64,000 bases of DNA, taken from positions 13,795 through 77,794 of the forward strand of contig JBDRAN010000035.1 of NCBI GenBank assembly GCA_043823745.1, in the 5' to 3' direction. How positions within the stretch are numbered: position 1 is the first letter of the stretch; every line of letters begins with the position of its first letter. The translations under genes were made by a program, and so were the position numbers. Under the pieces are notes generated by a model. It ran no database searches and was not told where the DNA came from. It saw only the letters and a list, made by a program, of their open reading frames with translations. Positions 15,640-53,100 of this stretch are shown here, one piece after another. The stretch comes from Candidatus Omnitrophota bacterium. Lineage in GTDB: Bacteria > Omnitrophota > Gorgyraeia > Duberdicusellales > 4484-171.

Positions 15640-15765
15640 TGAGTAAGCGTAGAGCGGTTAGCGTAGAGCGTATAGAAAAAAATTAGCGAAGATTAGAAAA
15701 TTCTAAATTCTATATTTTTCTCTAAACGCTATCCGCTCAACGCTCTACGCTAAACTTGACACCCT
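15640..15765. repeat. Intergenic palindromic repeat (GCGTAGAGCG... / ...CGCTCTACGC) between the oppB-like and oppC-like genes; related to 12935..12965
   Basis: Inverted copies of GCGTAGAGCGGTTAGCGTAGAGCG and CGCTCAACGCTCTACGC. A shared ACGCTATCCGCTC block also occurs at 12935-12960. Confidence 0.6.
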
Positions 15766-15780
15766 GTAAGCATTAGCCCC

Positions 15781-16749: not shown

Positions 16750-16794
16750 CGTACGATAGACCCATTATTCCTGCTACAGGAGCCGACAGAAAAG

Positions 16795-17106: not shown

Positions 17107-17110
17107 ACTT

Positions 17111-17117
17111 CCTCCTT
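17111..17117 (-). promoter_or_regulatory. Shine-Dalgarno AAGGAGG for the PilZ gene
   Basis: Reverse complement of CCTCCTT, 4 nt upstream of the ATG at 17104-17106. Confidence 0.6.
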
Positions 17118-17177
17118 TTTTATTGTAACATGTAAATAATTTAATAAAATATTTTTCGCATTGCGCCCTATACAATT

Positions 17178-29100: not shown

Positions 29101-32100
29101 GAAGGCTGTTTGAAAATTAGGGTCTGGCGATCACCAAGCCTACAAGGATACCCTTTGCTGCTAAGCGTTTTATTAATGTAGGCTGAAACCTCTATTGCCC
29201 GCCTGGCTCTAAGCTTAAATCCTGGGCTTCCCATAACTTTTACCGCCAACCAGAGATAGAGGGGAACGTGTCCACTGCGTGATCCGGGAATGGTCGTGTC
29301 TTCAGCATTAACATATTCTACCCTGTCCCGGCCGCTTGAAATATTACCCACATATTCCTTTTTCGTCAAGGCAATCGCTCCGAGAACCGACAACCCCATA
29401 AAACTGCCCAACGGCAAGGCCATGCTGTCCACACCGTGTTCAAAATCTATCTTTGAATTGCCTCCCAGAAAGGACTCGCCTATGCTTAACGGCGACATGT
29501 TGTAATGGATATGCTTTTGTTTTACGCCGGCACAACCCAGGATACCCTTGACCTTGCCTAAATCGTCTACAGCACCCAATAGCCTTCCGGCATTAAGACA
29601 CACTATGGCCGGGCCGCCGTTCTGCCCTACTTTTTCCTTTAGGTCGGCGTAATCAATTTCTCCGCTTGGCGAGGACTTGATAATCTTTATCCTGTTCTCC
29701 TTTACGCCTAATATCTGCAGCGCGTAGTAAAGAAGGCCGTCAACATGATTGGATAGATAATAGATCGCGTTCCTGGAAAACCGGCTGCGAGCGATAAGCA
29801 TCGCATAAAGTTCGGCCTGCTGCCTGTTGATAGTCACATGGCCGCCGTATCCCTCGGAAATTTTAAAATGCCCGGCCCAGAACTCCAGGAGCTCACGCTC
29901 CTGTTCTTTTGTATTATTCCTTACATAGGTTTCGTCATCCGGCTCGCCCAAGTTATTTAACTGATACTGATAAAAACGGGTTAGGATATCATAAAGCGGA
30001 TTCGCCTTCGGGGCGCTGTCTCCAATCCTTCTCTCAAACTCTTGTAGCCTTCTGGCTATTTGGCCGGAATCTACGGGGCTCAACCTGACGCCGTTGTCGG
30101 CGCTGGCGCCCGGTGAGCTTGACGATTGTCTTTCTATCTGTGTGTCAATTTGCTGCGCCAGCCTCTTAACATCCTGCGCAATAGTTGAAATATTAACTTC
30201 TAAAACTGCTATCTCAAACTCTCCCTCTAAATCGAGTTTTGCCTGACTGCTCCAGTCCCTTGCGCTTACATCCCGGCCTTCGGCTCTATGGTGTTCGATA
30301 AATTTCCTTATTTGTTCTAGATTCCTAACTTCATAAATTGCCTCTACATAGTGAAAACTTAAAGGAAGGCTTGCTTCATCATCCTCTGGAGATATTGAAG
30401 GATCGTGCCCAGCATAGAGCTCACACTCATCTTTTTCCTTAGCCACATATCCCATCAGTTGGTCGTCTGCTATCGCTTCCCATTTTCCTGTAGCAATTAA
30501 GGCCTTTTTCAATGTACTTTTTCCAGCGCTCGATAATCCTGTCAACAATATTACTTTTCCAGAACTCTTACTCCTTATTAAAACCCCAAAAATGTCAAAG
30601 GGAAGGTCTGAGGAAAGGCGTTGTAGTTGCTTTTTAGCTAACTCATCATTTCTTTTGTCTGCCTCGGATAATGCTGTTTCCAGGTTAAATATTAAATGCC
30701 CTCTTCTATCTGTTACGTTAAATCTCTTATCTATGTGCGTTATATATCTATACAATGTATTAAGACGTTCGATTGTAGCTATTCTATGCCTCGGTGCTGC
30801 GGGACTTGAGGCTCCCCTTGATAAAACAACAGGTTTACGAAGGTTTAAATCTTTAATAAAAATAACTCGGGTACCGCTTTTAACGGGGGTATCTTCATAA
30901 TGCCGCTCCTTCTCGAAGTCTTTTTCCCAATGCCGGGCTTGAGATCTTCCGGCTATATTTGTAACGGTGGTAATCAGAATATGGTCAGAATTATTTACCA
31001 TTATCGTCAGGCCGGTTCCCTCATGGCCCGACTGCCTAAAAGACTTTCTGGGCAAAATAGCTATATGTAGAGGGGCCAACTCCTGGTAGTCGTCAATAAA
31101 ACCATCGCCGCGATCAAGAAGAACAAAGGTAAAACGAACTTTACTTTTACCTATAGTTTGAATCCTTAACAGTAAGGCTCCGATATCTCCGGCCATTAAA
31201 TTCCTGGCATGCTGCCAAATGTTTTCTACGGCTTTGCCGACAGCGTTTAGCACTTCATCGTACTCATCGGCATTAAACAGGTTTTTGTTCTTTCCCAGAA
31301 AAGACCTCGCAAAGGAGTTTAGCTCACGAGTCTTGCCAACGATGATTTCCTGCAAATCTTGAGGAAATTCACAATAAAAATCTGACTGTAGTTCACTGAT
31401 AGTTTTCGCGCGAACTCCCCTGGCGGCAAGCATATCCACCCATAACCGATTGATGTGGCTGTAGCCCTCTTCATCTAGAAAGGGTAAACCGGCAGAGGGT
31501 TGATTTTTCCCGCCTGGGCGATGGGAAAGGGTTTTATCTGAAGCCGGCGAGCTGGCCCGGCCGCCGTCATTGTCGAGAGAAGCCGGTGGATTGCCTAAGT
31601 TGGATTCATTCTGTAACATGGTAAGTGCCTTAAAATACTGCAGGGCGGTACCACCCCCCTTTGCAGTATCAGCTTTAAGATAGGCTGCAGTCTTTTGTGA
31701 TGCCTTAGGCAGCCATTGATCAATAGTTTCAGCCTTAACATACCATGAAGACGGAACTTCATCCTCGAATCCTAAACAATCATATTCATCGGCTCCTAAG
31801 CCTTTTTCGCTAAGTTCTCGATAGGCTCCTGGCAGAGATAAAACAATTGCAAAACCTTCATTGGAGAGCATATATATTGTCCAAGCAAGAAGGGTTTGGG
31901 CTGAACCTCGGATAGCTTTAGAGATAGTCGTACCAAGGCCGATATCGTTCGGAAAATGTTTAAACATCTCATTTACTGGAGCATTCTGCCAATAACAGAG
32001 AATGGCCTGTTGCTTGCCGCTCGAATTCGAGAAAAGCACTTCGATAACCGCCTCCACTCCCAGAATCTCCAGCTCGTTAATATTTGTAATCTCGCGGGGA

Positions 32101-35100
32101 TCCTCTTTTACGCTTAAGGCTAAGAAGAGCTCCCGCCCCTGAGACTGTTCTTCTGCTAATGCTTTAGCTGTTGCATTCACCTGGTGCATATGGGTGGCTA
32201 ACCTTGAACAAACTGTCGTTCCTTCCAAACCTTGCCATACTTTGCTATGGCCTTTTATCGAATCAAAATCGTTACGCCAGAGGGTAAAAACATTTTGTAC
32301 GGCCTTTCGTTGCCGTCGCGAAAGCTCACTCATTCGCACAGCTAAAAGCAGGCGCGTCTGTTTTCCGGTTAAAGAATATTCATGTACGATAAGAGTATTG
32401 CTAAAGGAGGGGGCAATGAACTGGTTAACGATCGGGCTTGTGACAGGTACCGGTGAAGAGGAAGTGTCGCCGTTATCTAGGGAGCACGGCGAGCTGGCCC
32501 GTATTAGTCTATAGTCCATAGTCGATAGTCCATAGTCAGGGGAGATTAAAATAAAGGCGGGCAAGAGCAAGATTCCTTCGCCCGGGCGTCTGGATATCAG
32601 GGAAATTCTCTTGTGATAATTTCCCTGAAACGCCACGGGCATAGCCACTGCGTGGCTAGGTGGGGCTTTGTTGGACAAGCTGCTGAAGAAATCGTATTGG
32701 GTATTGGGTATTGGGTATTGGGTAAAAAATGGGTAAACGGCTGCGGCAGGTCGACCAGATCCCACCAGCCACGGAGAGGTAAACTGGTCTATAAAACCCT
32801 GCCGCAACCGAATATCTGCTTCTTGCTTATTTGCTTCTCTGCTTCTTGCTTTTGAGGCCGGGGAGCTGGCGCCTTTCCCTGGTCTTGGGCATTGAGATCC
32901 AGCCTCGGTCGTAGTATTCCTGACTTGGGTAGAAGTGAAAAATTCTTTGCCAAAAACTCTTTCACCCTCCTTTTGTAACCTCGCCAAATCCTGCTGAGAT
33001 TTCCTTAAGCGCTCAAGTAGCTCTACGGGAATTCCTGTAGGGAAATTTATACTGAAACTTGAGGCGCCTGTTTTCTCCGACGGGCTGGAGGCCCGAAGGG
33101 CCGACATCCCCGCAGGGGGGCTGGCCTCTTTTTGTCGGTCGTCGTTCATAGGTGGTCTATCTCCAGGAACAAAATCATAATCCGGACTGACCCAAGCTTT
33201 GCCGCCGGAAGCAACATCAATGCTAAGCTTCCTGCCACAAATCGTGCCGCCGGTACAGCGACTATCGACAGATAAGCCGTTACTGCGCAAAAAAGAAACA
33301 ATCTTTCGGGCGTAGGCTTGACCGCAAGCAGAATGTCCGCCGGCGACGGAGGCGATTATCCTATCCTTATTCGCTCCCAATTGTTCAAAAACTTCCAGCA
33401 CCGCCGAAAGAGTTTCTTTGGGCCAATCAGACTCTATAGCAGAAATCTTGTTACGTTTAGGGCCATCTTCGTTATTAAAAAAATGGCTTAAGAAAAATGC
33501 TTTCATTCCATTACTAAGAGAAGCGCTAAAAGTTACGCCAACACAGTTTACAAGGTTAGCGGTTAATAACTTCCTCACCTTGGCCTGAGAGGGAACGCCG
33601 ACAAAAATAACTGCTGTACGGAAATAAACAAAAAATGCACCTTCTCTTTTGGTGTATAGATAATACTCTCTTTCAGCCTGGCGAAAGCGGGAGTTTTTCA
33701 CTGAAAGATTATGAAAAACTAAAATATTGCCGCCAGCATCTTGCAGGCCTTCAATTCTTTTTTGCGGCTCAGCTAGCATTTCAAAAAGAACACTTTTTTG
33801 CGGCGAGCTGGCGTGGAACTTTGGCTGTGGTCTATTACTTTCAAGATGCGAAACTATTCCTTCATGCCTATCATACAAACGTATTGTAATTTCGGGGCGA
33901 TCATACACAATCCCGGATGTATTAGGATGCTGCGTATCATTTATAAAAAATCCAAAGGTGCGCTTTTTATCTTCAAGGAATGAATGTATTTCCCGAAGCA
34001 TCGACTGTCCATCACGCGAACCGGCCTTTTTGGCGACTAAATCGATGGGTATCAGTATTTCTAATTTATGCGCAAAATCCACGATACCTTGCAATACCAT
34101 GCGGACACAGGCCTCCCACCACCACCCATAAAGCACTACCCTAACATGTTCTGTGCGTGGTTTGTGATAACTAACATAAAACCGAGTTGCGTCAACAATG
34201 GCACCAATGTGATCTCGAGGCGGCACAGATAACACAGTATAGCCAAGACCTTTCATGCATAAGGAAAACTCTTCGTTCTCTTTTGCGTGCACTGGAACAA
34301 CTACTACTTTTATACTGTCCGCTGAGCTGGCCCTCTTCGGGTCGTGTGTATTGCGTGGTGCGTATTGCGATGATTTAAACTCTCCACTGGTGACTGGTGA
34401 CTGGTGACCTGGTAACTTTTTTAGCGCCGGTGAGCTGACCACTTGTTCGTCGTGGGTCTTGAGTATTGGGTATTGTGTTGAATCGACTTCTTCACTGGTG
34501 ACTTTGTGACTTTGTGACGTGTGACCTTGTGAGGCCGGCGAGCTGGCGGAATCCGTTTTGTTACTTTGGGAAAACGGTGGGACGCGGGTTGGAAAATTTT
34601 TGCTACTTTTCGTATTGGAAATTTGAGACCTTGATGATACCTGGCTGATTATTCTTTCAGCTGTTGAAAACGGTAAGGTGCATTCTTTAGCAATAACCGC
34701 AGGCTGTAATATCCCATCTCTGGCCAGTTTATTTTGAATATAATCCTCTATTTGAGCACAAGTCATAAGCCGGCCCTTCTCCGGTGATGCCGCGTAAAAA
34801 TCATAGTGAGATATCCCTTCTTTATCTAAAACCGGCTCCCAGTCTAACCCCAGTAATCGTAAACCCTTAAACAGTAGCCCAATATAGTGATTTCCTATTA
34901 TATGCTCTGCTTGGTATATATACATCACGGAATCGCCTCTAATGCGCCTCAAGGTAAAATTCGAAAGGTCTGGCATCCTAAAACTCTGATAATAAGGATT
35001 ATCCCGGGGAAAATTGTCAGGGTCTAATTGCCATATTCCACGCCCTCTTCGTATAATAAGATAACGGATGAGACCGGGATGGTTGGTCATCCGGGCATGG

Positions 35101-38100
35101 ATAAAAACTTCTCCCTTGACAACATCGTGTACATAACGCCGGTCAACGGCATGAGTAACGGGAACTATTCGCACTCCTTTTACATAGGAAAGCACTTCGC
35201 TCAATTCAAAGTCACCCTTTTCTACTGCCTCCTTTCGTAAGTCCTCTAAAAGATAATCAGCTCTTTCCTGAGAGGACTTATCAAAGTAAGGCTTTCTATA
35301 TTGAGAAAATGAGTGTGCTAATCTTGCTATCCTCTCTGATTTCTGAAATAGTAGACTGGAAAACATAGAGAAATAATGCCCTGTGAGGTATATAATATTC
35401 AAGGAAAGGGGTAGAAAAAATAATATTGCCACCATAGTATTCTCTAAAGGTAATAAGGAAAAAACTATGTAATAAATAGATACAAATCCTATTATTTTAT
35501 AAAAAACGAGAAAGGGCTTATAAAAAATGCTGCGCGGCTGCTTCGTATATTCATATTTCCGGAAAACATCTTTCATCAAAATCAGGTGCCAATCAAAGAT
35601 CAGCGGCAGACGCAATACGGAAAGAAGCGTATAAAAATATACACCGAATGATGACCGCGCTCTTGATAGCTCCGTGGCGTTTAAATTAACAACCCTGCTC
35701 CCCTGCGGCCGATGCGCGCGGACGGAAGAAGGAGATGAGCTTCTCCGAAAAGCAGTTGACTGGCCAGCGCCAGTAGGTTGCTCTAAATAGTAAAACCACG
35801 TCTTTCCTTTTCCGGAAACTTGCAGAGATTGTAATGGATTAGGCCTTCGCCCCAATAAGCGCTCAAGACACTTTCTTACCATACCAGAACTTAAGCCACA
35901 CCTATCTACGATTTCGCTTACTGACATAGCTCTATCTGCTGTATCGGACAGCACGGCCATAATTTGTTGCTCGGTTGACTGTTTGTTTCTCGCCAACTGC
36001 TCCTGCCTCATTAATCTTGGTTTTCGAACAGCCAGAGGCGTTAAGCTTTCCGGAAACTTAGCTATTAAATCCAATGTTTTTAGCTCAGCTGCCCCAAGTT
36101 GCCCATCAATATATAAAACAGGAACTTTTTCTGTTTGGCCAAATAATTTTACTGTGGTTCTAAACATAGAGGCATCGAAATTTACAATCAATCCTGCTTT
36201 AATCCCAGAGTCAGCTTGCTCCAGCCTATTGCGCACACATAGATGAGCCTCAGCGATCCCAACCGCAGCGGCCACAATAAAAAGAGGTTGAGCAAAACCA
36301 GCGCGCCTAAACAGAGCTTTAAAATTATTTTTTATAGCCTTAATATGGGCAGGCTCTTCAGATCGCCCCCTTCTCTGGGCCTTTGCCGCCTTTAATTCCT
36401 GCAAGCCCCAGATAAATTGTTCCAACAATCTTCTCTGCATAATTCGCCAGGCTTCCTCTTTTAACATAAATGTACCCTGCCTGTGACAAGCTAATTTTAA
36501 TCGCACCCATTCTTTTAAATCATTATCTATAATTTCTATATTTTCCCCTACATTATCAGCGAATTGTCTAATTTGGGCGAGAGTCTTTGGCCCTTGAGCT
36601 AAGAACCGGCTGATTTTCTGCCAGCGGTCAGCTTTTCTGGAGAAAGCATTCATTTCTTTATCTGTTTTTTGAACAAGCCTGGCATCAACAATGAAAATAG
36701 CCTTGCCTTTTAAGCTTTGTAAGCGCTGTACAATCATGTTCCTGCTATAACCCACACCCGAGGAACCGGCGGGAACGGGGGAACCGGCAACTGCACCTTC
36801 AACATCAGAAATAAATCTCTTTATAGATTCAGCATCGTCAGCATAACTTTTACCATTAAAGTTCTCACGCACTATGCCAATAACATAACCATTTTCATTC
36901 ACAACTGGTGCGCCGCTAAAACCAGGAGGCACCATAGTATCAATTTCAATAACCCCGCTTCTGAATATTCTTTTAGCTTTTGCGAAAATTATCTCGTTAT
37001 TGCCATTGTTACCCTTGTCTTGCCTGCCTAGAATAAATACATCTACCCCTTGTTTTTGGTCTAATCTCGGAAAATTCCGACGCGAATATCGTATGAATTT
37101 GGCCAACGGCTCTATTTTCTTCTTTTTTAAACCTTTATTTGTTAACCTAACAAGACCCTTATCAGATATTAGCACTGGAGGCTTTTGCAATCTTCTTCTT
37201 GAGCACCTGGAATAAAACCGAGAGCTTGAAAGGGTACCAAAACTTCCTTCCAAGTTGATATAGTCCGGTTGATTGTCAAATGCGTGCCCTGCGGTAACAA
37301 CATAATAATTATCGCTGCATTCGTTCCAAATAATACCGGAACAGCTATAAAAATGGTGCCTATACCCTGCCCTTCGGCGTGGCTTTACCACAACAAATAA
37401 TCTAAATATTGCCTCTAACCTTTCACGCGGTATGTTTGGAAATCTAGCTAATATGAAAGACATCAATAACTGTTCATTGACTTGTCCCGCTGAGCTGGCC
37501 TTACCTTCTCCCTCTGCGGCCTGCCGCAAATCACCGGATTCAAGCCTCCCAGCGAGTTTTCTAAGGTGCGCGTCCCTTATTTCCCGGGCAGCCGGGATGA
37601 GTCGGCTTAGATCCTCCCTGTTTAAAGCTCGGGCAATCCAAGCTAAATCGTGCTGGCTTATGTCCCGGCTCGAGGCCGCTAAAATCAGGATTTCTTCTTT
37701 TCTCCGCAGGGCTTCCTGCAAGCCCTTCATTTCCTGGAAAGAAGCTCTGGCTTCGATACAATTATAGTCGGACCATTTTCTTTCACCGGGATTTTCGTAT
37801 CTGGCCACATGGCCTATCATTTCATGAAGCACTATATCGAATAAATATGCCGGCAAACGGAACTCATCTTCCGCAATCATTATGATGTAATTCATTACCC
37901 CGGAAACTTTGCAGCTAAGGATTATCGCCCCCTTCTGTTTTGAATAAGAACTATCATGTTTGGGTATATATCCCAAAGTTTCCAAAGCAGAAGCCAATGC
38001 CTGTCTATTTGCGGTGACCACGGTCTGAATCCTCCTCTTTTTAACAAGCGTAAGCAGCAAAGAGTAATCCTGGGGTGATATGGCTTTAAGGATTCCCATA

Positions 38101-41100
38101 CTTAAGGCGATACTCCGCATCTCCTTATCCGTTACCGGCCTTACCTGCCTGCGGACTTCCCTGGGCATTATTGACATTGACAGGTAACGCCCCCCTAATC
38201 TATCCAGCTTTGAGTCCAGAAAACGCTGAGAACCTGAAGACGACGAGCTGACGGAGGAAGATGTAACTCCTAACTGTTTTAAAATCTTCTGAGCCCCCTC
38301 ATCGCCTCTCTTTGCATCTTCTTGTAAAATTTTAATAGTTTTCTCACTCGCCTTCCTCAAATAAAATTCACTCTCAGCGGGTCGCAATAATCCTGTTTTT
38401 AACTCTTCGCGTCTAAGAATGATAATCATTTTTAAATTTGAACGGATAGCAATATTCTTATTACGTGTAATATTTATTACATAACGGAGAAGTTGCCGGC
38501 CGGCACCGATAAAGAAACTATTCTTATCTTGCTTGTTGCTGGGTCTCTTTTCCAACCAAACGAGCGCATCTGTTCCATCTTTTTGCTCTTCTATTACAAT
38601 AAAACTCTCTACGGATAGTTGAGGCTCATAGCTATTCTTGCTAAAAGAAAAATATATGCGCCTTAGCGGTCTTACTTGTTGAAAATATTGCTTATAGTCA
38701 GTCCGTCTTAAACAACGGGCAACATCAGCAAGCAGTAGCGAATTCTCTGGTCCAATATCACTGACTTGATATTCTGGCCAATATTTTTCAAACTCCGCGA
38801 TAACACCCTGTCGTTCTTTTTCAGAGAGCTCTGATACTTCCCGAACCGGTAAGATCTTTTGACCGGGAACGCCTCTAAACACAAGATTCTCCTTCACGAT
38901 AATGCCTCTCTTTAAAATCTGATTATCGTATATGTTTATTCTTTCAGCCGGCGAGCTGGCCACTTGTTTTTTAAAAACCTTCGCAATAGATTCTGCTTCG
39001 GCGCTTACCTCTTGCCAAGATGTATTGCTTGTAACCGGAATTAAGATAATAAAAATCGAAGGATGCCTGGCGCGAGTTAAAATATTAGAGACGAGTGGCG
39101 GTGATTTAATAAATGAAAAATCCCTATGCCTCCTTTTACCCCCGATAAATTCATCAGCAATGGTTTTATTTTCAGAAGAAAGATCATCATAATCTAAGTT
39201 AAGCTGAGCATATTTTTTCTCTCTAGCTTCAGCTATATCCTTAACGTTTGATTCATAACCAGGACTATAAAGCCTGTCGAAAAACGACATAATCCCTAAT
39301 AGATTCTTTATATTCGCCGAAGAATATGTAGTACGTATCCGCTTTCTAAAAAAGATTTTAACTGCCGCCCGCAAAGGTAATTCAATGTTTTTATCAATAT
39401 CCCCTTCATCTTGAAAAGTTAACGCCGGCGATACCCAAATAGGTTCTATATGCATAAGCGAATCTCTAGGTGCAGTCTCTTTCATCTTTCGTATATCGTC
39501 GTTCGTATATCGTTTATCGTTTGTCGGGGAGCCAGCAGCTTCTCTCCCACTTGTGACTTTGTGACCTGGTGACTGGTGACTTTGTGAAGCTGGCGAGCTG
39601 GCGGAACTTGATTGTTCAAAAATAGCAAGATGGTGTAGTTTAAGGTATAAATCTATTGTATCTTTTGTTAACTGTTGCGGTTTAATAAGGCCTTCGAGGC
39701 TAGTTTGTTCCAATAAATCCAGAAAATCCCAAATAAAAACATCCATTTTCTCTAAAAGAACTGTTGCGTTTCCCTGTTGGCCGAATCCTCCTTCTAAATA
39801 ATCACCCACTGCTCTTTGAAGTTGAGGAATATAGGCAGCTAACACTGCCGGACATCTTCCTGATAAAGTATTTCGAATTGATCCCGCCAACCTAACCACT
39901 ATTTTCTTTTGACTCGGAAAAAAATCACCAAGATCTCTTGCGGCTGCACGAATTAAGCTTTCTATTCCCCTTCGGATATCATCCTTTGCTAAAACCTCTT
40001 CTTCAGAAAAAACATCTGCTGACAGCATTTGAAGGCTTCGAGAATCATCCATTAATTCTAATACATCGATGATGCCTTTACCGGCAGCCATTCGTACGAG
40101 CGGATTATAATCGCTTTTTATTAAGGTTTCAGAAAGATTACCAAGAAGAAGATACCTAATTGCTGGTTGTTCGATAGCTGCTAAATGCTTAGCAACTAAC
40201 TCAATCAAGGCAAACTCTAATGACCACTCACCATGTTGCAGGGCTGCATTTAAAGTGCCTAGAAGAGGGTTGATAAATTCAGACTCAGAGGCCAAGCCCG
40301 TGCTGGAAATTCTGTATGCGGCAATTGCTCGAAATCTATAATCTAAATCAGGCGAAATCATTTTACCAATCAATTGCTCTAGCGGCGCAGGACTTGACAC
40401 TTTGCCATTTTCTTCAGTACCCCCTACATCAGGATAATCGAAGTTTACCTCACCGGCTTCTTCACAAAACCTTTTAACCTGCTCAATAGTGTGTATTATC
40501 TGACTCTCTCCGGGGCTTGAAGATCCCGCCGGCGAGTTAGCCCTACTCCGCCCTTGAGACTCACCAGTCTTTTCTCCTTCTGCACCGGAAGTAGAAACAG
40601 TTTGTACATAGCGTTTCAGAAACCTCCTCACAAGAAGAAGGCCTTTCTTATTGATACGATACACCGCTAAGTTACCCCTTTTCTGCATTGTAGTCACATA
40701 TCGCCTGCTGCGGGCAACGTTGATGAGGCTGCGAACATTCCAATGTCTACCTTTGAAGATGTCTGCATGGGCAATATCATCATAGGTGCATCTTTCCCGC
40801 AGCGATGAGTCAGCCGCAACACAAAAAACAAGTATGTGATAACCGGCAAAACCTCTCGGCTCTGGATAGTGTTCAGCACTGTAATAGTCCCATATTTTTG
40901 TCAAGTCGCCGCCAAACTCTTCACTTACTATTCTGTCTATTTCTTCCTTTAGTGTTTGAACATTCGGTGAACTTACCCGTCTCCCCGGTGAGCTGGCCTT
41001 ATCGTTGTGGACGGTATTACGCCGTACGCCCGGCGTGTTGAGTCGTGAGCCTTGCGAGGAAACCTTCCTGATCTTTGACAGTATTCTTCCTATAAGATCC

Positions 41101-44100
41101 GATTCCTCATCTAGATATGGAAATCCCTCTTCGCCTTCGAGAAGATCAAGCAGGTTAACCGGATTTTTATTTGGATCAATGCCGCGGGCTAGGTCAGGCC
41201 ATACATATACTTCCAGGTTAACAGGTTGATATACGTGTTCATTCTGCACGCTTTTTGTGTCGTAGGTAACAGTTACAATACCTTCTTGCATGACTATCAT
41301 ATCGGTGTCCCCCGTAGACGGATAAGGCCGCGTCCTTATTTTTAAAGCAAGGTTTCTCTTGGAGTTTATCGCCTGAACCCTGGCCGCAACAGCATGACTA
41401 AGCTCAACATCTCGACGCGTCAAAAGCATACCGCTAATATCTCTAATTCCCATCCTTAGCAGTTCATCAACGAGTCGTTCAAGTAATCCTATCTGGCTTG
41501 TGCTCATATGGAAAAATATAAGGACATCCTTCCCTTTTCTTATTCCTCTTAAGGCAACTCCTGAACAACCGCCCATGCGATACGCGAATAGCCGATATGG
41601 ATTTTGTTTCATTTCTGTTTCAATAATTGTTACCGATTGTGTTGACACCCAGTTTTTAGGCCTGTAGCCTTTTTCCACGTCGGCTCTATCGATTCTTGTT
41701 ATTCCTTGAGAGTTGCTGTGACGAGACAGTAATCGTATATCCTTTTCATTAAACGGATCATTGCACCACATACTATCGCCATCTGCCAATTCATTACCTA
41801 GCTTTTCGAAAGGCATCCGATTGAATATTCCAATGCTGGCCCGCAATACACGCTCTATTGCTCCACCCCTTTCCGTCGGCGAGCTGGCCGGCTTCTGGCC
41901 GCTGTTGGCGGGAGGACTTAAAGATTTGCGCCTACGACGAGGATAATTCTCACTTTTCAAATCTTCAACTCTATGCTTAATCGATACCTCACGAGGAGCA
42001 TTAAGTAATATCTTGGCTTCTGTACGGCCTGATTTCGCAGATCCAACTATTCCATTAAATTGGATGATAATTTGTGGCTTTGGCTGATGTTGTTCTGGCT
42101 GATCTGGACCTAAATCTAACCAATACAGAGTCTGATAAAATAAAGCATACGGCTCACTTTGACCATTAGGCCTCTCAATCTCAACAGTAACGTTTTGGTT
42201 TCTAATATTGTCAATATCGCCGGTTAAATGCCAATCTTTTACAGTAATCGTATAATGATTTTCTCTGCTCCCACAATAAACACACTCTCCGCCAATCAAT
42301 CCTGTAATATAATTACCCCTTAGACGCATACCTTGATCGTCAACTTTTATTAATTCTTTTATCTTGCCCGGCGAGCTGGCCCCTTCTTTCTCTAAAATAA
42401 ATCCGGCCTCTGCTATTTTTGCTTCTATATCAACTCCATCTGCATCAACTCCGTCTGCAAGGAGCGCTCGCGCAACTCGATTAGTCCAGGCAGCAGACTT
42501 CATGGGTTGGCCGTTTGCGTCTTTCAATCTTGACCGCAATTTTTTCAAAGCAATAGTCCTGCTGCCTGTTTCAGTCGCAATCTGACCGAGTTCTTCCAGC
42601 ACCCTTGCGGCAAAAGCATTGTGTCCAGGGCGAGCCTTGCGCACAGCCGGAGAAGCCTGATTGGTTTTCAGCCATGCACGAAAACTCTCCAAAGAATTCC
42701 AGATACGATACCCTTCTTCGGCGTATACCAAATCAAGCAACTCCTGAAGCGTCGGCTTGACGCCTTTGTGTGCCTTGGCATATGTGGCAGAAAGCCTGTC
42801 TAGCTGAGAAATCCGTTTCTGCTTATTAAATTCGCGTACGGGAAACTCGATCCCGTTTTGCTTGGCGATATGATAAAACTGATGAAAGGTTAAGCTGCCA
42901 TCGACTCTGGGGTCAGTTTTTCCCATCGCCACTATTTGCTTATGCACTACGTTAGCCAGGGGCCGCCTGCCATCAGTCAAGACCTGATCTTTAACCCCTA
43001 AGGCAAGCCAGCCTATGCCAAATTTATATACAGTTAATTTTGGATCGCCCTTCCTACCTACCATCATCCGACGTCTTTGCTCTTCATCGGCATCACAAAC
43101 ATGCCTCTCTCTCCGGGCAGCAACTGCACGGACGAGTTGGTCTATATCGGCTATGGGCGCAGGAAACTGAGAATCCGCAATATCAAAACGAGTATCCCTT
43201 TGTATATCAAAATCATGCCACCTGCCGTTAAAGAAAAGAGACGCGAATACATACTCAACCTCAGCAGGCATATTTCTAAGGACCTGCGGGGGGTAAATCG
43301 CTTTAAAGGCGTCTTTTCTAAGCATAACAAGTTTGTAGCCAGCCGGAATCTTTGCGGCCCGGGCCACGGCAACAAACAAATTGGCCGCATTAAAAGACAT
43401 GCCAACCTCTCTATGAAACGTCTCAGAAGCCGGAGTATCCCAGTAAGCGCCATAACCAATACTATATTTGATTTTTTTACTTACCCAGTTCCAGAAAAAA
43501 GCGGCCTGGCGCGCAGAATCGTCAGGATAGTTCTTTCTTACTTTATAGGCTTTTCGCCTAATCGCCGGATCATCCCGATCGCAAAGCTCGGTTTGAGCTA
43601 AAAACCTTTCTGGATTGTCGAGGCTGACTGCACCTTGATCTGCAGGCGAGCTGGCCCTCTTTGAGTCGTGAGTCGTGGGTCGTGCGTATTGCGATGAATT
43701 AACTTCTTCACTTGTGACTTTGTGACCTTGCCTGCCCTTCGAAGCCTTGGCGAAGTAGGGTGACTTGTGACCTTGTGAGGCCGGCGAGCTGGCCTGCTTT
43801 GTCTTTACAAGAATATTATCCTTATCGCCAAAACCTTCTGCGGCTACGAATCCGCGTTTTCGCAGCAGCGATTGTATTTCCAAAGTACATTCTCTCGTAA
43901 AGAAGAGAACTCTTCTAGTCATTCCCTCTAATTCCAGTATCATTTTTTCTTCAACGTTCAGATGGCTATAGCCACCATGGCTTCTGACTTTCCGTCCTAT
44001 TATATAATCTCCATAGTGCTCAAAAGCCACAAATCCTACTACTTGATCTCTGTATGCGGCCACCATAATCTGGCCATCTCCGTATGCTCTTGGATCAAGA

Positions 44101-47100
44101 TCCGTCAGAGAAAGCTTTCTGCCGCGCCTAGCAGACTCTGATCTAACCAATAGCTTTATAAAGTCCCTTCTGTCCCATCTGCGGTCTCCCTCGGCAATTA
44201 TACTCGTTCGTTCTATATCTTCCACATCATCTAACTCTAACGACACTCTGCACCGTCGAATAACAAGCTCTGGTTTGCTCTGTGGCGCCGACGAGCTAGC
44301 TGAAGAAGCCCGACCACAAGCCGCATTCACACGAGCTGCCGACGGCGTTATAGTCGCCTGAGCCAATATCTGGCTGGCCCAACTTGTAAAATCATCGTCT
44401 ATTTTTAGATCCTGAGCCGGTATGCCGCTCGGCGCAAAGGCATCACGGAGAGAATAACCCGGGCTCTCTTTAACAAAGATTATCCCAAGCATCGTTCTTA
44501 ATACTGCTGACATATAAATATCACTTTCAAACAAATCCGTCATCACCCTGGCATTATCAATACTGTTGTCGGGCTTAACCAAATAACCAAAATACTTTAG
44601 ATATCTTTGATAATCAGCATTTTGAGACTCTTTATCAACTCTACGGCAATACGCCTTAAAATCACTTATTTGTGACATCAAATAAAGTATTTGCACGGTA
44701 CTGGCTTCAATTTCAGCGGCCCACAGGGAAAACACCGTTCGTTTTAATTTATTTCGGTATTCACCGTCCAATGCGCCGTATGAAAAGCAGTAAGTCAATG
44801 GGTTGTCGTGCCGCATAATCTCTTCATTGAGTTGGCGATACTGCTCGAACAAACCCCGCTGACGCCGCAACAGATGTGTCGCTTCATGAAGCAAAACAGC
44901 CTCAAGGTCGATATCAGTAAATTCAGAAACTGTTTTACGATTTACCTTTAAAAATATATTCTTGAGAGTAAACGGTCCTGGTTTGACGGCAATGGCCAAA
45001 TAGCCTTTTACTGCCGGCTCGAGCTGAAGTGTTGGTATTACCTTACATACTTGACCCAGCTCTAACAGCTCTTGCTGTGAAAAGTGGTTTAATCTTTTGA
45101 GTGCGTCCATGTTAGCAACTAAACGCCCAGATGCAGCAGCTATCTCTTCTTTAATAACAGTAAGAGATTTGGATGCCGGCGAGCTACTGTGAGGCTGCCC
45201 TTTTGCAGGACTTGGCGCAGACGTTTCATCTGCAAGATAGGGTTGTATCATGCCTTCAGGCAAAAAGGTAGCAACTGAAGAGCTGGTATCTTCTTGGGGC
45301 ATATCCCCGGAAACATGTTTCTTTAAAAACCTGCACACTAACGCAAGTCCTTTATTATTAATGCGATATACAGCTGTTTTTCCGCGGCGCAGAGTCGTCA
45401 AGTAGCCCCGCGTACGAGCTGAGTTAATAAGGCTTTGTACGTTCCAATTCTTACCATAAAATACGGATGCTTGCGCGATATCGTTCCATGTGCATCCTTC
45501 CTGCAACGTTGGCTCGGTCGCCACGCTGAAGAGTAAAATATGATACCCACAAAGACCTGTTTCAACAGGATAATTTTGAGCGCTATAATATTTCCAAATT
45601 CTTCCTAAATCATTACCAAACGCTTCCAGCACTATTGTATCTATGGCGTGTTTAAGTGCCTTGTTTGTTCTTGCTGGAGCCGTTAATGATCGTTTCATTT
45701 TTTTATTGTCTGCCAGTGAGCTGGCCATCTTCGGGTCGTGATTCGTGAGTCGTGAGTCTTGAGTGATAGAATACTCATGTTCACTTGTGACTGGTGACTT
45801 GTGACTGGTGACTTGCTTTGCTGGTGAGCTGGCCCCTCTCTCTAAATGCTTGTTTTCTCCCAAACCGCAGCAGAGACTCAAGATAGCTTCCGCATCTATA
45901 TACGGCTGGATCATGAAAAGTACGGCCCCGACACAACCGGTTTTTTCACCCCACTCCACGCGCAGCGCTCCCCGATCATTAAACTGAGCCTTTTCTCCAG
46001 CAACCTTTATTTTCCTAACCCCCATATCTTTCATTTCGTAGATTACTTTCTTCCAGACCAGCTTAACATCTCTTAATCCAAGCACCGGTACTATCGCATG
46101 TTCGGGTAGAATAGGAACAGGACGACTATCGGTTCTTGCCGGGATTAATACTACTATTGCTTCGGTTTTAATTCTGCTCGGAATCTTTGACAACTCTGGC
46201 CCTCGTCCTTCACAATCAGCCAATACAAATACTACTCCTTTAGCCGACTTTAAAAACTCTACCATGTTATGAAAGTATGAGCTTGCGTTGTGAGCAAGTC
46301 CGCAGGGTACAAAAATAGTTTTCCCTCTCTTTTCATGGTGCCACCGCCCAACATAACCTCCCAATATATGTACTAATAAGGTGACCTCACCACCATTGCT
46401 CCTGATTGCTTCTTTAACCGTTTTTGAACAGCGACCTAAAGCATCGTCGTAGCGAATCACTCTTTTATAAATCTCCTCTTTTTCTCCGACCCTAGGTGAA
46501 TTCTGCTTGGCCTCTCCATAATACAAATTATTCCAAAGCGTAACCAACCCCCAGTTATATTGGGGTTGATCATCCGCCCTCGGCGAGCTGGCCCGTTCTT
46601 CGATCCTCGATTCTGGATGCTCGATGCTCGATAGGAGGGTAGGCATGGCTTTTATCCCCGCTGCGCACTCGGGCATGCGAAAAGTTACAAAATCCACAAT
46701 ATCTTTTTCAAGAGTTTCCCTGTCACCGATCCACCTCAATGATGCTAACCTTTCCAGGTACTTCCAGTAACTTCTTGAGTCGAACTGGCTGAGATGATTC
46801 ACCCTCCCTGAACGGAAGAATCTTCGTAATTCCGGCAATAAGTCATCGTTGTTTCTTACACAGCTCATATATAGAATAAGATCTCGCCCAACCTGCCGCG
46901 CTTCTTCTTTCTTCTCTTTTTCGGGTGTCCTAATTGTGTTATCATGGCCTAACTCATGGAAAAGACGCTCGGCCATAATCCAAGAAGTAGCTTTCCTATA
47001 TGAAGGGCTAGCATGACGGTCTATTAAAGTAGTAACGAAATTCCTATTAAATACGATGAATACCCTTCCTGTCGAGTCAATATGTTTTATGGAGTTAAAG

Positions 47101-50100
47101 GGAAGATTCTTAGCGACAAGGATTGGTATGGTCGTACGTTGTGGCACATTTTGCTTTAATATATTTACTAATATTTCGGCGGCTTCAGTCCCCTCAACCC
47201 TTCTTTCCAGCTCGTTTAAAGCGTCGTCAAGGAGATTCTGCAGTTTATTTCTACCGATTGTTGGCTTATTTATGCGCCGCTTTATCCTTTTCTCTCTGTC
47301 AGTTTCGAGTAAGACTGGACCGAGAATGCTGTCATATATTAACTTTTCAACCGACAGCTTTTTTATTCCAGGAGTTGTAAGCATAGCCTTGAAACCGTCC
47401 CCGGATAATAAAGCCTCCTGAGTCCCTGATCTATCGGCAGCCTCAAATAGTCGCCTTGTCCCTACAGGACTATTTATTAAACTGGCGCTTTCCAGTGCCG
47501 GCGAGCTGGCCTCGTCTTTATTGTGCGTATTGTCCCCTTCGGGGAGGCTCCGCCTGCCCTTCTGGGCGGCTCCGCGCCGTATTGCGTCAGAACCCGGTGA
47601 GCTTGCCTGAAAAGGTTCCGGGGATGAGGATTCACGCCTCTTTTGTATCAACCTGGAATATTCAGGATCGCGCGGCTTCATAAGCCTCTCGTGCCGACGC
47701 TGCATTACAGAAGAAGAAGATTGTTGTAAAACATTATCTTCCCTCTTCCCGGAAGCCAAATCGTAATCCTGCTGGCTCAGTTTCTCAAGGTGCGCCGTAA
47801 CTTTAACAATTTTTCTTGTTGAAGGTTCCCCTAAAGAGCTTGAGCTCACGTTACGTTTTGTCGGAGAAACAGTTGAACCGGAAGCACTACGAGTCGCACC
47901 GAGCACATGGCTACGTATCTTTCGTTTGACTAAAGCAAGATTCCTTGGGGTATTTTTCTCAAAATCATTCTTGGTAAAATAAAACGGCGGGTACCCGTTA
48001 TTTATCAAAAAGAAGTTCATTAAAAACCAGGCAAGTCTATGGTGCCCTTCGTTGAACGGCGGAATCCCATCCCAATAGCAAAATCCCTCTCCCGATAATA
48101 TCTCCTCATGAAACCGGAACTTATCCGTAGGATAAAGATATATTTCCCTTGCGAGTTCTACGACCCTGTCTATACCTTCTGCTTGCACCCGGGAATTAAC
48201 CATTTCAACCAGATACGGCAAAGGTTTAAATGGGTTCGATAGGGTGCGAATTCTTTTCTGGCGCGTTTCATTGAGATTAAGCTTCCTCTTCTGTTTGCCT
48301 GTCCACCCTGTGGCAACCTCTGGTTGTTCTTTTACTGTTCTCTTATCTCCCATCATCAGTTCATACAAAATAGCGATATTCCTATATGTTATCCTTTCTT
48401 GTTGCGTGACGACTCTATTAAAATAAGAAACTGCTTCAAGAAAATCATTAAGAAAATTTCCTTGCCGTCTCTCTCTAAGAGACGGTACAGATGCAAATAA
48501 CGCACGTATTCTTTCGGGATCGATTGTATGTACGACTCTCTTAATAGATGAGGAACCGGTCGTGCTTGAAGCGGTGCCCTCACCTATTATAGCCGGAGCA
48601 TTTTTATCACCAAAACCCACGTCCGCGGAAAATTTATATCCCAATGCCTTGGCCCGCTCGACTACCGAGCCCATACCAATACCGATAACGACTGATGAGC
48701 TTGCTGCCTGACCAGGAACGCTTGCCGTTGGCTCTGAGATAAGTTTTTCGATGAGCTCTTCGTGCTTTCTGATAATAGGCTCATGAGCAAAGCGCTCCAT
48801 GACAAACGGCCGCGCGGCGCGGCCCATGGCTCGGGCTCGCGCGGGGTTATCCAGAAGAAACCGTAACGCACGGGTAAGCGAATTAATATCAACGCGGCTA
48901 TGGAACTTATTCGTGCATTCGATAACATCAACGAGTATGCCGGTTTTACCAGGGATAAATACTTCGAGATTCCCGCCCCGATTCGTGGTAACGATCGGTT
49001 TTCCCATAGCATGAGCTTCAAGAATAACTCCGGAAATACCTTCGTTAAAGACCGTAGGGAATGCTACGATTGACGCTGCATCAATGTGATCTCTCATTTC
49101 CTCTCTGCTATGAACCGGGTTGAGTATCTTTACCACATCGTGCAAGCCATGGCGCTGCATATAGATTTGTATATTCTGCAGGTATCTTCGTTGCAGATGT
49201 TCGCCCAGAATAATCACCAAGAAACGGTAATTCATATCCTTGAGCCGGTGTGCGGCTTTAACCAGCTCGAAGATTCCTTTACTTGCCACGATACGGCTGG
49301 GAGAAAGAATAATCGGTTTTTGATCGCACCCAAGCTTTTTACGGATCACTCCAGCGCGGGCAGGATCAGAAGAAAAAATGTCCAGGTCACGAAGGCCCGG
49401 TATGTGTACGACATCACGAGCAAACTTTTTGCGTGCGTCCCGCGCACCCCGAGCCGATATGGTCACCAATTCGCTTGCTCTGCTGATCACTTCTTCGAGG
49501 TTTCGCTGACGGCTCGAGTCATCGGTAATCAATTCTCCTTCGTGCCACTGGACTAAAAGCGGTATGGCCCGCTGGGCTGCCATGCGGCTGGCTTCAACCG
49601 CTAAACTACTTTTGGGACTGTGAATACGGACCACATCGATTATCTCCCCCCTTTTCTCTCCCATCAATGCGGCAACACGGGCAAGAATATCTTTTTTAGT
49701 AGTTTCGCCGTATTGGTGGTATCGGTGATGAATAATCCGGGAGGATCCTACCTGCTCAACAAAACCGCGGTCGGATTGCTGGCGAGGGACTTCATAGAAG
49801 ACATGTGTGGTAAGATTCTTATGGCGTGATGATAAGGCGTGGTTAAGGGCCACCAGATGCAAGGCTTGACCAGTGGGACTGGCGTAATGATTGGTCATCA
49901 TCAGGATACGTTTCCCGGAAAGGCTCGATGAAAATGCTACCCTCGGCGGGCCGCGGCGACTAATTGCACCTGACAAAGCTTCTAATCGACTACGCGCACC
50001 AGGAAATGGGCGCCGCGCAAGAGATCGATGCAGAGCTACTTCTTGATATATTCTCTTTGCTCTGGGCAATGAAAGCATATATATATAGGAAAGCGGCGAC

Positions 50101-53100
50101 AGATGGAGTCTTTCGGGCGCGGCCTCAGGAATCCCGCGATGCGTATCAGGTACCGATGTCACAACGGCTGACTTGACTGAGGTTAGTGAACTGCTGCTAT
50201 TCTTTGTAGCTCTTGTTGGGCTGCGCCCCAGCGCGTCCCGTAGGGGACTGCGCCGCAATTCAGCCATTACGTCGTCAAATATACCCCTGAAGGCTGATAT
50301 AACAGGAACAATACACCGCTCTATCTCTGCTTGCGAAGGAGCTCTGTGATGGGAGAGACGACGCGCCCATCCCGAGAATTTACCTGAGAGCGTTTTTTCT
50401 ATTTCCGTAACAAAAAGGGTAGGTAAATATTCATCTAAAGCCTGCCTCAATACAATACCAACAACATCAGAGGACAGACGACGCTCAAGCTCTTGTCTAC
50501 GGGTAGCTTTAGCTTGCTGCAATTGCCTCTTATCAGCCAATTGCGCAGGCGCACTATTCGCAAGCCAAGCCTCTACTTTCCTGTCAAGGTAGTAGCCTCT
50601 AAAAAACGTGTCGCGGTCCGGCCTGGCGTAATTCTTAAGCGCCTCCATCATGAAAGCAATAATCGACTTTTCGATAAAAAATACATTGTCCGGTTTCCTG
50701 ATGTGGTGACAATTAAAGGTAGCTCCCCACCGCGCGATGAACGGTAGAATAGTTTTTATGACTTCTGACAATCTATTTTGAGTTTTCTCCTCAAACAGCC
50801 TCATCGCTCGACTATGCTGTCTATTTTTTGTAAATACAGCAAGCGCCTCTTGTTGTACGTCACTATAAAAAACCTGAATTGACCTCTCCAAAATGTTCAG
50901 GGACTCAGGGGAAAAATTTTTCCTAAGCACACCAAGTGATTCATTTACTCCAGAGCCAGCTACTCCACTTAATCGAGCCATTCGCTTGATGAGGGAACCG
51001 ATAATCTCTAATTCTTCAACAATCTCCTTGTGAGGCTTCCTCTGCGAAGCGGAACTAGAAGAATTGCAGTTAGACTTTGAATTGTGATTTTTCAAATCTA
51101 CCGATGAGCTACTGCGCGGATACCCTTTACCCATGCGCGGATGAGTTATCTGCAAGAGATTAGTATGCGCGACCCATTCGGCTCCTTGTGGTCTTTTCCC
51201 GATCGTTGTACGGCCATCCTCTGTGCTCACCCATACGGGAAATCGCACATCGGCGGCATCAGCCGACAGTTCGGCCTGGCGTGCGGAGGTGGCTTGATCT
51301 AATGCTTTGCGTTTAAAATCATCCCACCGGCCGGGGCTCCATATTTCAAGACGGTCGCCAACGCCGACAAACACTGCGATATCGGCCAGGCCAGCGAATT
51401 CCCGTAAAGCACGCGGTATATGTAATCGAGAATTCCTGTCTATCGCAGCCATGGGTATTCTGTCTTGTGGTTTTTTATCTCCGAAACAAAGATAGCCTTC
51501 ATCTCCTTTATATAGATAAAGCTTGGAAGAAGCCAAATCCTTCCGCCAGGCCGCGGGAATTAACAGCCGGCCTCGGTCGAGTGAGCGCGAATGCGTACCG
51601 ACAAAGATTCTTGAGGAAACCGATGAGCTGCCATAACGGGGTACAATACTGCTTGAAGCAATAAATTCTTCTGCCAGACCCTTAATATAGGAAGATGCTT
51701 CTTGGTCCTCGAACTCTTGAGGTGTTTCCCCAATCAGCGCATCTTGGTATCTTCGTGGATTGATTTGTAAAAACGGGATACCTTCACGAGCATGCGAAGT
51801 TACGTAATAGCGGTGAGCGGCTTGTTTACCATAAGGCACTACATAGAGACTCTCGGCTGCGGTTTTAAGCGCTGCCAATACGGTTCTTTCTTTTTCCGAA
51901 GAGGCACGAGTAGACATCGCCTCATGCAATATCCTTTGCGCGCTGTCAAGATAGAGGGCGCCGTCATCGGCAAGATCCCCAAAACGTATTGTACTCTTAC
52001 GCCTCAATAAAGCAGTCACCTCTTTAGAAGTAACAATTTCCGCCTGCTCGCCCAAATGTTTATTCATCATGAACGTAAGCGCATGCACAAGGCTATTACG
52101 CTGTTCAAATACCTTAAGCCGTTGTAGAAAATCTTGAACGTTGCCAAGCCCTGTCTGTTGAGCGAAAAAATCACCGATTAAGCCAAAAAAACCGAGTGAA
52201 GATGCGCGAGGTTGATACTGCGGGCTTGAACTGTCTGCTGCTTGCGGCGAGCTGGCCTGGTAAAGGCGTTTTGCGTCCGCGGGGCTTTGCACCTGTTGTG
52301 CCCGAAGGTTATTCAAAGGACTAGAACTCTTAAGAGAGTCCGCTATAAGTGTTTCTATAAAACCTCCCTCATTCTCTTCCGCTCCAATCATTCGCGCACG
52401 ACCGAATTGTTCATTCCTAAACGCAGATGTTGTGTCGTTAAAACCATAGTGAAGAAAACGTCTCATGCCGGCTTCTTTTGCAGCAGGAATGTACCGGTCA
52501 ACCTGATTATCAATAAACACCGGGTATTTTGGCTCGCCATACTGCTTTCTATATTTATCAAGAGCAATCTCAAATATTTTTTTCCCGTCCGATTTCACGG
52601 TTCCATGTTCACCGGTAATCACAATTAAGTCCGGATCGATAAGGCCCGGGTAACACCGATCAAATAGTTTCATCATCCACTTTCTGCCAGCCGCCTCAAA
52701 GTTCGATATAACTCCGAATCTTATTCCTCTCTCCGATTGAACTCTCAATAAATCATCGAGCCTTTCTTGAATCCATGGATTTGCGCTCATGGGGCCGAAA
52801 TAGGCCTCCTCAAACTCATCTTGAGTAACCGGCCGAACTGCACCGTAACCTAACAAATACCTACTGATAAGGTCAACCCAACGCTTAAACGTTTCTGGGT
52901 TGCGATGTAAATCATGCCGGGCAATTATCTCAGAACCTTCATCAACTTCTTCCGGCGGAATGATCAGTCGGTGTAAACCCTCTCTGAAACTCGGCTTTTT
53001 CTCCGTTTGCCACCCTTCACTATCGGTTAAACCTGAATATGTTCCTAATCTTCTGAGTGTTTCATCGAAGAAATCTTCAATCTGAGTGCCTAAAACCCGC

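Follow-up and report, generated by a model that had tools for sequence, protein, structure and literature searches.

How the protein chains of 10,000–150,000 residues of Omnitrophota are built is a recent puzzle, as is whether they are cut and where their units start and end. The 64,000-nucleotide (nt) stretch considered here (hereafter the window), from contig JBDRAN010000035.1 of a Candidatus Omnitrophota bacterium, raises this question in concrete form: its minus strand holds a giant open reading frame (ORF) in which one short DNA sequence recurs, at some places with a repetitive cassette between its copies. This junction core spans about 14 nt, (G)GCCAGCTCGCCGG(C), is always read as ASSP(A/G) and marks most module boundaries. 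At seven boundaries, two to three direct copies of the core enclose some 65–140 nt of short 7–8-nt arrays, (GTCACMA)n and then (CAMGACN)n, and reading of these arrays in three phases yields a hydrophilic, stop-free, low-complexity peptide. The reading favoured here, with reasonable though not high confidence, is that the cassette separates independently folding enzyme modules as a hydrophilic, flexible spacer, and that the joints where modules duplicate, disappear and swap are marked, and probably formed, by its repeated DNA, the heptamers stemming from a process that fills unconstrained DNA.

The junction core and its cassettes

An earlier sequence-only reading of this stretch had named five sites with a shared linker cassette. 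Local search of the six-frame translation of the window with a hidden Markov model (HMM) detected a related cassette at each of them, the site at 34.3–34.6 kb proving to be a tandem pair, and added one more. The seven strong copies (independent E-values 9e-8 to 5e-22) are all located on the minus strand, in a single frame and in a single ORF (aa, amino acid position; MAG, metagenome-assembled genome):

17178..64000, minus strand: giant ORF holding every cassette; 15,593 codons from the first GTG (17178-63959), open over 15,606 codons to the window edge
45702..45848, minus strand: cassette C1, aa 6043-6082, HMM 5e-19
43635..43808, minus strand: cassette C2, aa 6723-6772, HMM independent E-value 5e-22
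43783..43793, minus strand: 5' junction core of C2, coding sense GCCAGCTCGCC, read as ASSP
43645..43655, minus strand: 3' junction core of C2, lying 138 nt (46 codons) downstream of the 5' core and repeating it in direct orientation
43711..43730, minus strand: 8-nt array of C2, plus-strand unit CTTGTGAC x2.5, encoding QGHKVTS
43662..43684, minus strand: heptamer array of C2, plus-strand unit TGAGTCG x3.3, coding sense CACGACT, encoding RPTTHDS
39480..39620, minus strand: cassette C3, short variant, aa 8120-8157, HMM 4e-16; present in MAG contig JAHJZK010000179.1
34416..34565, minus strand: cassette C4a, aa 9805-9845, HMM 1e-21
34314..34448, minus strand: cassette C4b, aa 9841-9880, HMM 3e-16; in tandem with C4a, the middle core common to both
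27114..27194, minus strand: cassette C5, short variant, aa 12261-12285, HMM 9e-8; perfect 8-nt array x2.9
23070..23201, minus strand: cassette C6, aa 13592-13625, HMM 5e-17; two exact cores 66 nt apart; absent from the sequence-only reading

The order of elements in C2 is core, 8/7-nt array (GGTCACAA/GTCACC), 30-nt insert, second GTCACAA array, spacer, (CACGACY)n array and second core, and the arrays of C1 comprise a perfect (CACCAGT CACAAGT) x2.4 repeat and (CGACTCA) x4.3. The common structure that had been proposed, ASSP-SQGHK..VTSEE-..SQY..THDPKR-ASSP, holds in full for four of the seven copies (C1, C2, C4a, C4b). The other three (C3, C5, C6) follow a shorter variant, ASSP-SQ..GHKVTS-(K/G)REAA(S/G)SP-T(N/D)D.., with an additional ASSP-like core in mid-cassette.

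After trimming of the ASSP ends, 13 of the 21 cassette pairs scored above all 500 composition-matched shuffles (z up to 14). The likeness of the cassettes therefore exceeds shared low complexity, and the objection that they resemble one another no more than random low-complexity sequence falls. Pairwise alignments are confined to the cassette and the flanking modules are unrelated; the cassettes therefore behave as portable units, as the sequence-only reading had supposed. Two further cassette families were seen before the core at other junctions. The first, a smaller one, comprises (Y)ELTNYPT-ASSP and ELRTMSYPT-ASSP (window 60721-60790 and 25852-25900; aa 1077 and 12700). The other is DN(D)GGR-ASSP, whose two copies (aa 10802 and 12524) have the DNA GACAAYGRCGGCGGCCGG in common ahead of the core.

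No 4-mer of the giant protein is more over-represented than ASSP (32 observed vs 0.36 expected; SSP 56 vs 4.5). At the DNA level, 46 sites within ≤2 mismatches of GCCAGCTCGCC lie in the coding frame, and the coding strand has three in its two remaining frames. The core consensus, (g)GCCAGCTCGCCGGc, spans about 14 nt with unconserved flanks. Outside the gene (window 1-17177, both strands), neither a cassette nor an exact core was found, with five sites at ≤2 mismatches. Codon choice at the 32 ASSP sites departs strongly from that of the gene:

GCC: 29/32, gene-wide share 31 %
AGC: 27/32, gene-wide share 24 %
TCG: 21/32, gene-wide share 13 %
CCG: 25/32, gene-wide share 33 %

The minority TCA variant is carried by both cores of C1. 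The position before ASSP is occupied by G, R, Q, S, K, T, E or H, with Arg in 13 of the 32 cases (RASS x13).

The same core was found in a second genome. Exhaustive comparison of aa 5700-6800 with 1.84 billion representative proteins gave 13 matches of 462–7,834 residues, two of which are fragments of this gene. The best true relative, P0001 (4,662 aa), is encoded on the 1.82-Mb record CP070807.1 (gene at 10001-23989 within the stretch CP070807.1 894160-928148). It is syntenic with the window gene, both loci having the order giant gene, pilZ, opp genes, and the adjoining PilZ proteins of the two genomes look no more than about one-third identical when compared by eye. The two giant proteins have one module in common (60 % protein and 78 % DNA identity), which begins exactly at a VSSP core in both. 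At the 11 SSP sites of P0001 the same codons prevail, four sites being exactly GCCAGCTCGCCG:

AGC: 8/11, background share 20 %
TCG: 9/11, background share 13 %
CCG: 8/11, background share 21 %

P0001 has a cassette of its own, [AT]SP-x-(H/E)NHGMSQGED-...-[AV]SSP, in 13 protein copies; its conserved DNA stretch has 12 matches at ≤3 mismatches and none in the flanking 20 kb. The DNA AACCACGGCATGTCGCAGGGGGAGGAT is nearly invariant in it and includes a Shine–Dalgarno-like GGAGG. Other long relatives possess recurrent junction peptides of their own (LRPRAAG, DPHRAKPG, TSTS). A conserved core combined with a lineage-specific cassette thus looks like a shared design, the core part resting on two genomes. 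The conservation of the core at synonymous sites over two distant genomes is not explained by a spacer role alone, and is the most interesting point here.

The cassette profile had no match at E ≤ 1 among 5.8 billion proteins, and aa 6030-6800 had none in the same set, where low-complexity words probably saturated the candidate list, as is suspected because the later exhaustive search recovered P0001. The first 400 aa gave no match in species-representative genomes, nor did the shared-module alignment in metagenome contigs of the Joint Genome Institute (JGI). The two-core DNA pattern retrieved at least 120 stretches from metagenome contigs, which on screening by guanine plus cytosine (GC) content and reading frame were mostly high-GC contigs or unrelated tandem repeats; no modular giant gene was among them. 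The accession numbers of the two assemblies had no match in the literature.

Heptamer arrays inside and outside the gene

The cassettes had been described as built from in-frame 9-nt tandem units. Tandem Repeats Finder instead reports periods 7 and 8 (also 14–15) inside every cassette and period 9 in none, so that the units, not being multiples of 3, run out of codon phase within a coding region. Read in coding sense, (GTCACMA)n or (GGTCACAA)n forms the first array and (CACGACT / CAATACN)n the second. Seven codons (21 nt) correspond to three 7-nt units, so that each phase of the unit is read in turn: GTC ACA AGT CAC AAG TCA CAA gives V-T-S-H-K-S-Q, and CAC GAC TCA CGA CTC ACG ACT gives H-D-S-R-L-T-T. 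This three-phase reading of 7–8-nt units accounts for the quasi-repetitive peptides (SHKSPVTS/GHKVTS, TQDSRLT/THD), and the 7-nt unit length for the weak matches of the cassette HMM to the other two frames at the same places. The gene contains 14 period-7 arrays vs about 1.2 in codon-shuffled controls, and for 19 of its 21 period-7/8 arrays the distance to a core is no more than 120 nt (P = 8e-12). Arrays beyond the cassettes include:

53216..53280, minus strand: linker between cores with a (TCAATAC)n array, aa ~3560-3579; 17/17 match to intergenic hairpin arms, E = 1.8e-4
46582..46632, minus strand: core plus heptamer array GCATCGA x4.7, junction at aa 5790
32488..32537, minus strand: core plus (TGGACTA) x4.7 array, junction at aa 10488
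32694..32724, minus strand: perfect (CCAATAC) x4.4 array, encoding TQYPIPNTQY

Related arrays occur between the ordinary genes of the window. Outside the giant gene, 12 period-7 arrays are present in 17 kb, 10 of them intergenic by comparison with the ORF list. In the intergenic regions they are arranged as array, loop and inverted array, and fold strongly (z about -3 to -7 in the four of five regions folded, lowest -6.8). Nearly every gap between ordinary genes contains such a heptamer hairpin:

397-429: intergenic heptamer hairpin
1230-1360: intergenic heptamer hairpin
9995-10102: intergenic heptamer hairpin
12860-12953: intergenic heptamer hairpin
15638-15780: intergenic heptamer hairpin

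Their units include GTATTGA/TCAATAC, AGCGTWG/CTACGCT and AAACACG/CGTGTTT, and no Rfam family matches anywhere in the window. The GTATTGA/TCAATAC unit, (ACTCAAT)n, is common to these hairpins and several linkers of the giant gene, the linker at 53216..53280 providing the 17/17 match. Three units of GTATTGA always contain TGA, and inside the ORF the stop-free orientation alone is found.

Such arrays invite comparison with the neuO gene of E. coli K1, whose (AAGACTC)n heptanucleotide repeat of 3–53 copies acts as an on/off switch (PMC13001214). By analogy, slippage of a 7-nt unit could put translation out of frame and end it where two modules meet, yielding chains of varied length. The likeness is close in that both are coding 7-nt units read in three phases, three units giving seven residues and changing the frame unless gained or lost in threes, and in that the neuO unit is near-identical to that of the second C1 array. 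The neuO repeat is, however, one long perfect array at the 5' end of its gene, whereas those of the giant gene are short (2.5–5 copies), mostly imperfect (matches 72–100 %), internal, several per gene and placed at module boundaries. The sole independent record over a cassette, the MAG contig covering C3, is moreover identical to the window. As such arrays abound in the non-coding DNA of the window too, they need no switching function; phase-variable truncation is considered very improbable. The second C1 array itself (window 45735-45764; units AAGACTC/ACGACTC) encodes a peptide, TQDSRLT, almost as in neuO, probably by coincidence.

A second alternative takes the cassette for a mobile or palindromic element, i.e., a stop-free derivative of the heptamer hairpins that was inserted in the core, with duplication of the core as target site and an incidental role as spacer. 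The core-insert-core architecture with direct repeats would agree with it, as would related cassettes beside unrelated modules, the inverted intergenic arrays and the (TCAATAC)n unit common to several linkers. The two C1 arrays pair by G-U/G-T wobble (plus-strand fold z = -2.7) between two cores that both carry the TCA variant. By own reading of the sequence, the right arm of C1 is three transitions off the exact complement of the left arm, and the exact complement would create TGA stops. C2 folds with z = -2.5 and -3.1, its cores pairing with each other, whereas the remaining five cassettes (C3–C6) do not differ from shuffles. An RNA hairpin as a general property of the cassettes was thus rejected, C1 and C2 alone beating shuffles in 14 strand-cassette tests, a marginal result also for the mobile-element view. 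Against this view stand further that none of the units proper to the cassette occurs in the remaining 17 kb of the window, that every copy has one orientation and one frame, that no transposase was seen, and that most cores (more than 30) carry no insert. The mobile element is accordingly a doubtful candidate, and a hairpin origin of the cassettes is to be taken as a lead rather than a result. The link to these intergenic heptamer hairpins also suggests a way in which separate genes may have come to share one frame.

Modules, proposed joints and fate of the chain

The frame of the giant ORF is open at the window edge, and the codons at 63960-64000 match an internal paralogue (aa 13070-13083 there, the match extending over aa 13070-13190), so that the true start lies beyond the window and the gene exceeds 15,606 codons. 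Three of its stretches, one containing C3, are identical to contigs of the public MAG GCA_018827245.1, in which the neighbouring proteins also have exact copies, and this excludes that the ORF arose as an error in a single assembly. In that short-read assembly the gene is fragmented into pieces of 2–7 kb, contigs breaking off within it at window positions 18149, 35051, 41808, 46715 and 48942; the window must stem from the same population, assembled with greater contiguity.

About 10 unrelated Pfam families are scattered along the whole chain without any one dominating, among them ELFV (glutamate) dehydrogenase, M23 peptidase, HATPase_c, MraZ, GT1 glycosyltransferase, transglutaminase core, Trypsin_2 and a pyridoxal phosphate (PLP)-dependent decarboxylase. 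Polyketide synthase or nonribosomal peptide synthetase (PKS/NRPS) domains (KS/AT/ACP or C/A/T) have no Pfam match across the ORF, which is not an assembly line of that type. A complete glutamate dehydrogenase (window 54980-56310, aa ~2549-2994) begins about 25 aa past ASSP-2520 and aligns to residues 10-411 of a solved 419-residue enzyme. Its top database matches are stand-alone enzymes of about 415–425 residues aligned over their full length (identity ≤48 %), and at least one module is thus a whole enzyme set after a junction. The notion of "enzymatic beads" in the sequence-only reading is apt in spirit, but not in the sense of a PKS/NRPS-type assembly line. Diverged PLP-dependent decarboxylase-like modules were also seen in tandem (window 27640-29700; aa 11421-11709 and 11825-12106; mutual identity 32–35 %).

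The cores avoid the domains: Pfam envelopes contain not one of the 46, where 4.5 would be expected (P = 0.011). The xSSP flanks are more disorder-prone (TOP-IDP z = 6.3) and less hydropathic than random positions. The data support the description of the cassettes as low-complexity hydrophilic spacers bounded by conserved ASSP codons. A further proposal of the sequence-only reading, that the Ser/Thr/Pro-rich cassettes and SSP are tethers modified by O-glycosylation or phosphorylation, could appeal to this composition and to the GT1-type glycosyltransferase module in the same chain; it is nonetheless scarcely credible, as no known bacterial O-glycosylation sequon is matched, nucleotide-level conservation is left unexplained, and a chain with no signal peptide in the window and one short hydrophobic stretch is probably mostly cytoplasmic. 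That stretch (window ~35400-35490, aa ~9491-9519) is essentially the sole strongly hydrophobic one among some 15,600 residues and probably forms one or two membrane helices, the chain otherwise looking soluble.

Internal duplications, identified by self-BLAST of the protein cut into fragments, connect the cores with module edges. They relate aa 9050-9411 to 13176-13547 (73 % identity), aa 1-106 to 13083-13190 (51 %) and aa 6066-6285 to 7635-7829 (46–50 %), with endpoints at a median distance of 36 aa from the nearest xSSP vs 97 aa for random positions (P ~0.01; ~12 endpoints). The module 6090-6258 is flanked on both sides by xSSP, as are the paralogue at 7662-7813 and the copy in P0001 (611-759). 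Residues 13083-13547 are a mosaic in which an N-terminal-like block and one resembling 9050-9411 meet at an ASSA/ASSS core. The 73%-identical module of about 360 residues (window 35730-36810 and 23320-24430) ends in an apparent winged-helix motif (...SVSEIVDRCGLS..VRKCLERL...), and the shared module at aa 6090-6258 / 7662-7813 is also winged-helix-like in appearance.

These observations are consistent with the favoured reading of spacer and joint. In the protein, the cassette would be a flexible tether on which whole enzymes of a single chain fold independently of one another. In the DNA, cores and cassettes, being repeated, could be the joints where modules duplicate, disappear and swap, which may be why the syntenic relative's gene shares just one module. 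The heptamers would be a by-product of a slippage or repeat-element process that fills unconstrained intergenic DNA, stop-free units alone surviving within the ORF. The repeat as a design at the protein level, as the sequence-only reading had it, gives way to evidence pointing to an origin at the DNA level, i.e., intergenic-type heptamers and synonymous-site conservation of the core.

Several points weigh against this account. A core of 14 nt is short for homologous recombination, and no recombinase or integrase was seen beside either giant gene, as checked among the window's 15 other ORFs of ≥200 aa (by list, not domain-scanned) and the called genes around the CP070807.1 gene. Beyond the gene, the other 17 kb of the window yielded neither of the cassette units (GTCACMA)n and (CACGACT)n. 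Disorder was judged from composition, and single-sequence AlphaFold prediction of aa 6540-6960 leaves the cassette without secondary structure at a mean predicted local distance difference test (pLDDT) score of 35, too low to use. The endpoint test is small, several endpoints lying far from any xSSP. No further relatives with the core were recovered in protein, genome and metagenome searches, and cross-genome conservation therefore rests on two genomes. Finally, at three ASSP sites serine is encoded by the alternative codon family (TCN for AGY or the reverse), which speaks for some protein-level selection that a pure DNA joint would not need.

The last point is shared by the view that the chain is a polyprotein, cut at or beside ASSP by its own protease module or a dedicated protease so as to free the enzymes, with the cassette as disposable spacer. 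A short motif recurring at nearly every junction (32 ASSP, 56 xSSP), frequently preceded by Arg, would suit cleavage, as would the Trypsin_2, M23 and transglutaminase-core (cysteine-protease fold) modules in the chain and the junction peptides LRPRAAG, DPHRAKPG and NHGMSQGED of other long relatives. Glutamate dehydrogenase of this type is normally a homo-hexamer, and its embedding is hard to understand if the 15,000-residue chain stays uncut. The literature, too, has raised cleavage for the giant proteins of Omnitrophota (West-Roberts et al. 2023). However, cleavage needs no synonymous-site conservation, whereas the core is kept base for base within and between genomes; the residue before ASSP is variable, and no known protease specificity fits ASSP. 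Processing of this kind is therefore judged rather improbable, if worth keeping in view. Peptide-bond skipping of the 2A type, inteins and signal-peptidase sites were dropped, the residues that define them being absent from the sequence.

A bolder explanation starts from the base-for-base conservation itself. The core GCCAGCTCGCCGG might act as a junction signal in the nucleotide sequence, used by a system for building and remodelling giant ORFs, with whole genes joined in frame there and the core recognised across genera by a DNA- or RNA-level machine, e.g., a recombinase, a processing nuclease or a ribosome-associated factor. Stop-free derivatives of intergenic hairpin repeats would then become the spacers. 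Although unlikely, this proposal, if true, would make the giant gene an "operon turned into one reading frame" with integron-like logic, and the core would be retained not merely for the peptide ASSP. A genome-wide DNA signal such as Chi or an uptake sequence was rejected, the exact core being absent from the 17 kb of flanking window DNA; it is also disfavoured by the 20 kb around the CP070807.1 gene, which have no exact core and none on the gene's strand.

As to the genomic surroundings, a PilZ gene (~16794-17105) and then opp permease genes are located immediately downstream of the giant gene, and McsB-like and McsA-like (UVR/zinc-ribbon) genes followed by ClpC lie further downstream (window 3958-8300). 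The top three genome matches of this ClpC are MAGs labelled Candidatus Omnitrophota (80/74/72 % identity), after which come Planctomycetota-labelled MAGs (73 and 69 %).

Comparison with known systems

Heptanucleotide tandem arrays dispersed over one genome recall the STRR repeats of heterocystous cyanobacteria, which, in work ascribed to Mazel et al. in 1990, reportedly occur genome-wide and are mostly non-coding. The present arrays differ in phylum and unit sequences, and in that the intergenic ones form inverted hairpin pairs with related arrays inside an ORF.

The cassettes resemble integron attC sites in being elements of about 60–140 nt with short conserved end cores and partial palindromy, located between functional units of outside origin. 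The attC sites, however, lie between separate genes with an adjacent integrase and have cores that are inverse complements, whereas the giant-gene cassette is translated, its cores are direct repeats and no integrase was seen.

Multi-domain precursors with near-identical junction sequences are also represented by the gingipain/HagA polyproteins of Porphyromonas gingivalis, in which the junction repeats are both Arg/Lys cleavage sites and recombination substrates. There, long repeats lie within homologous adhesin domains of secreted proteins; here, a 14-nt core lies between unrelated modules and cleavage is putative.

The closest likeness in kind is to the giant genes published for Omnitrophota (West-Roberts et al. 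2023, bioRxiv 10.1101/2023.11.21.568195) and to the class of giant proteins termed "multi-enzyme metabolic cluster" (Nielsen & Lui 2026, bioRxiv 10.64898/2026.06.07.730766), with which the present gene shares an ORF of more than 15,000 codons, many unrelated Pfam families and Omnitrophota-like neighbours. In the former study, giant proteins could not be split for structure prediction because cleavage points were unknown; term searches of both reports found no mention of linkers, low-complexity sequence, polyproteins or a recurrent junction motif. The giant multi-enzyme gene class is already published, and the ASSP core and the cassettes add to those descriptions. The junction motif would offer a practical rule for dividing giant proteins into units and a specific peptide (…↓ASSP…) to seek in metaproteomes, and the core a concrete DNA sequence whose synonymous-site conservation demands a mechanism.

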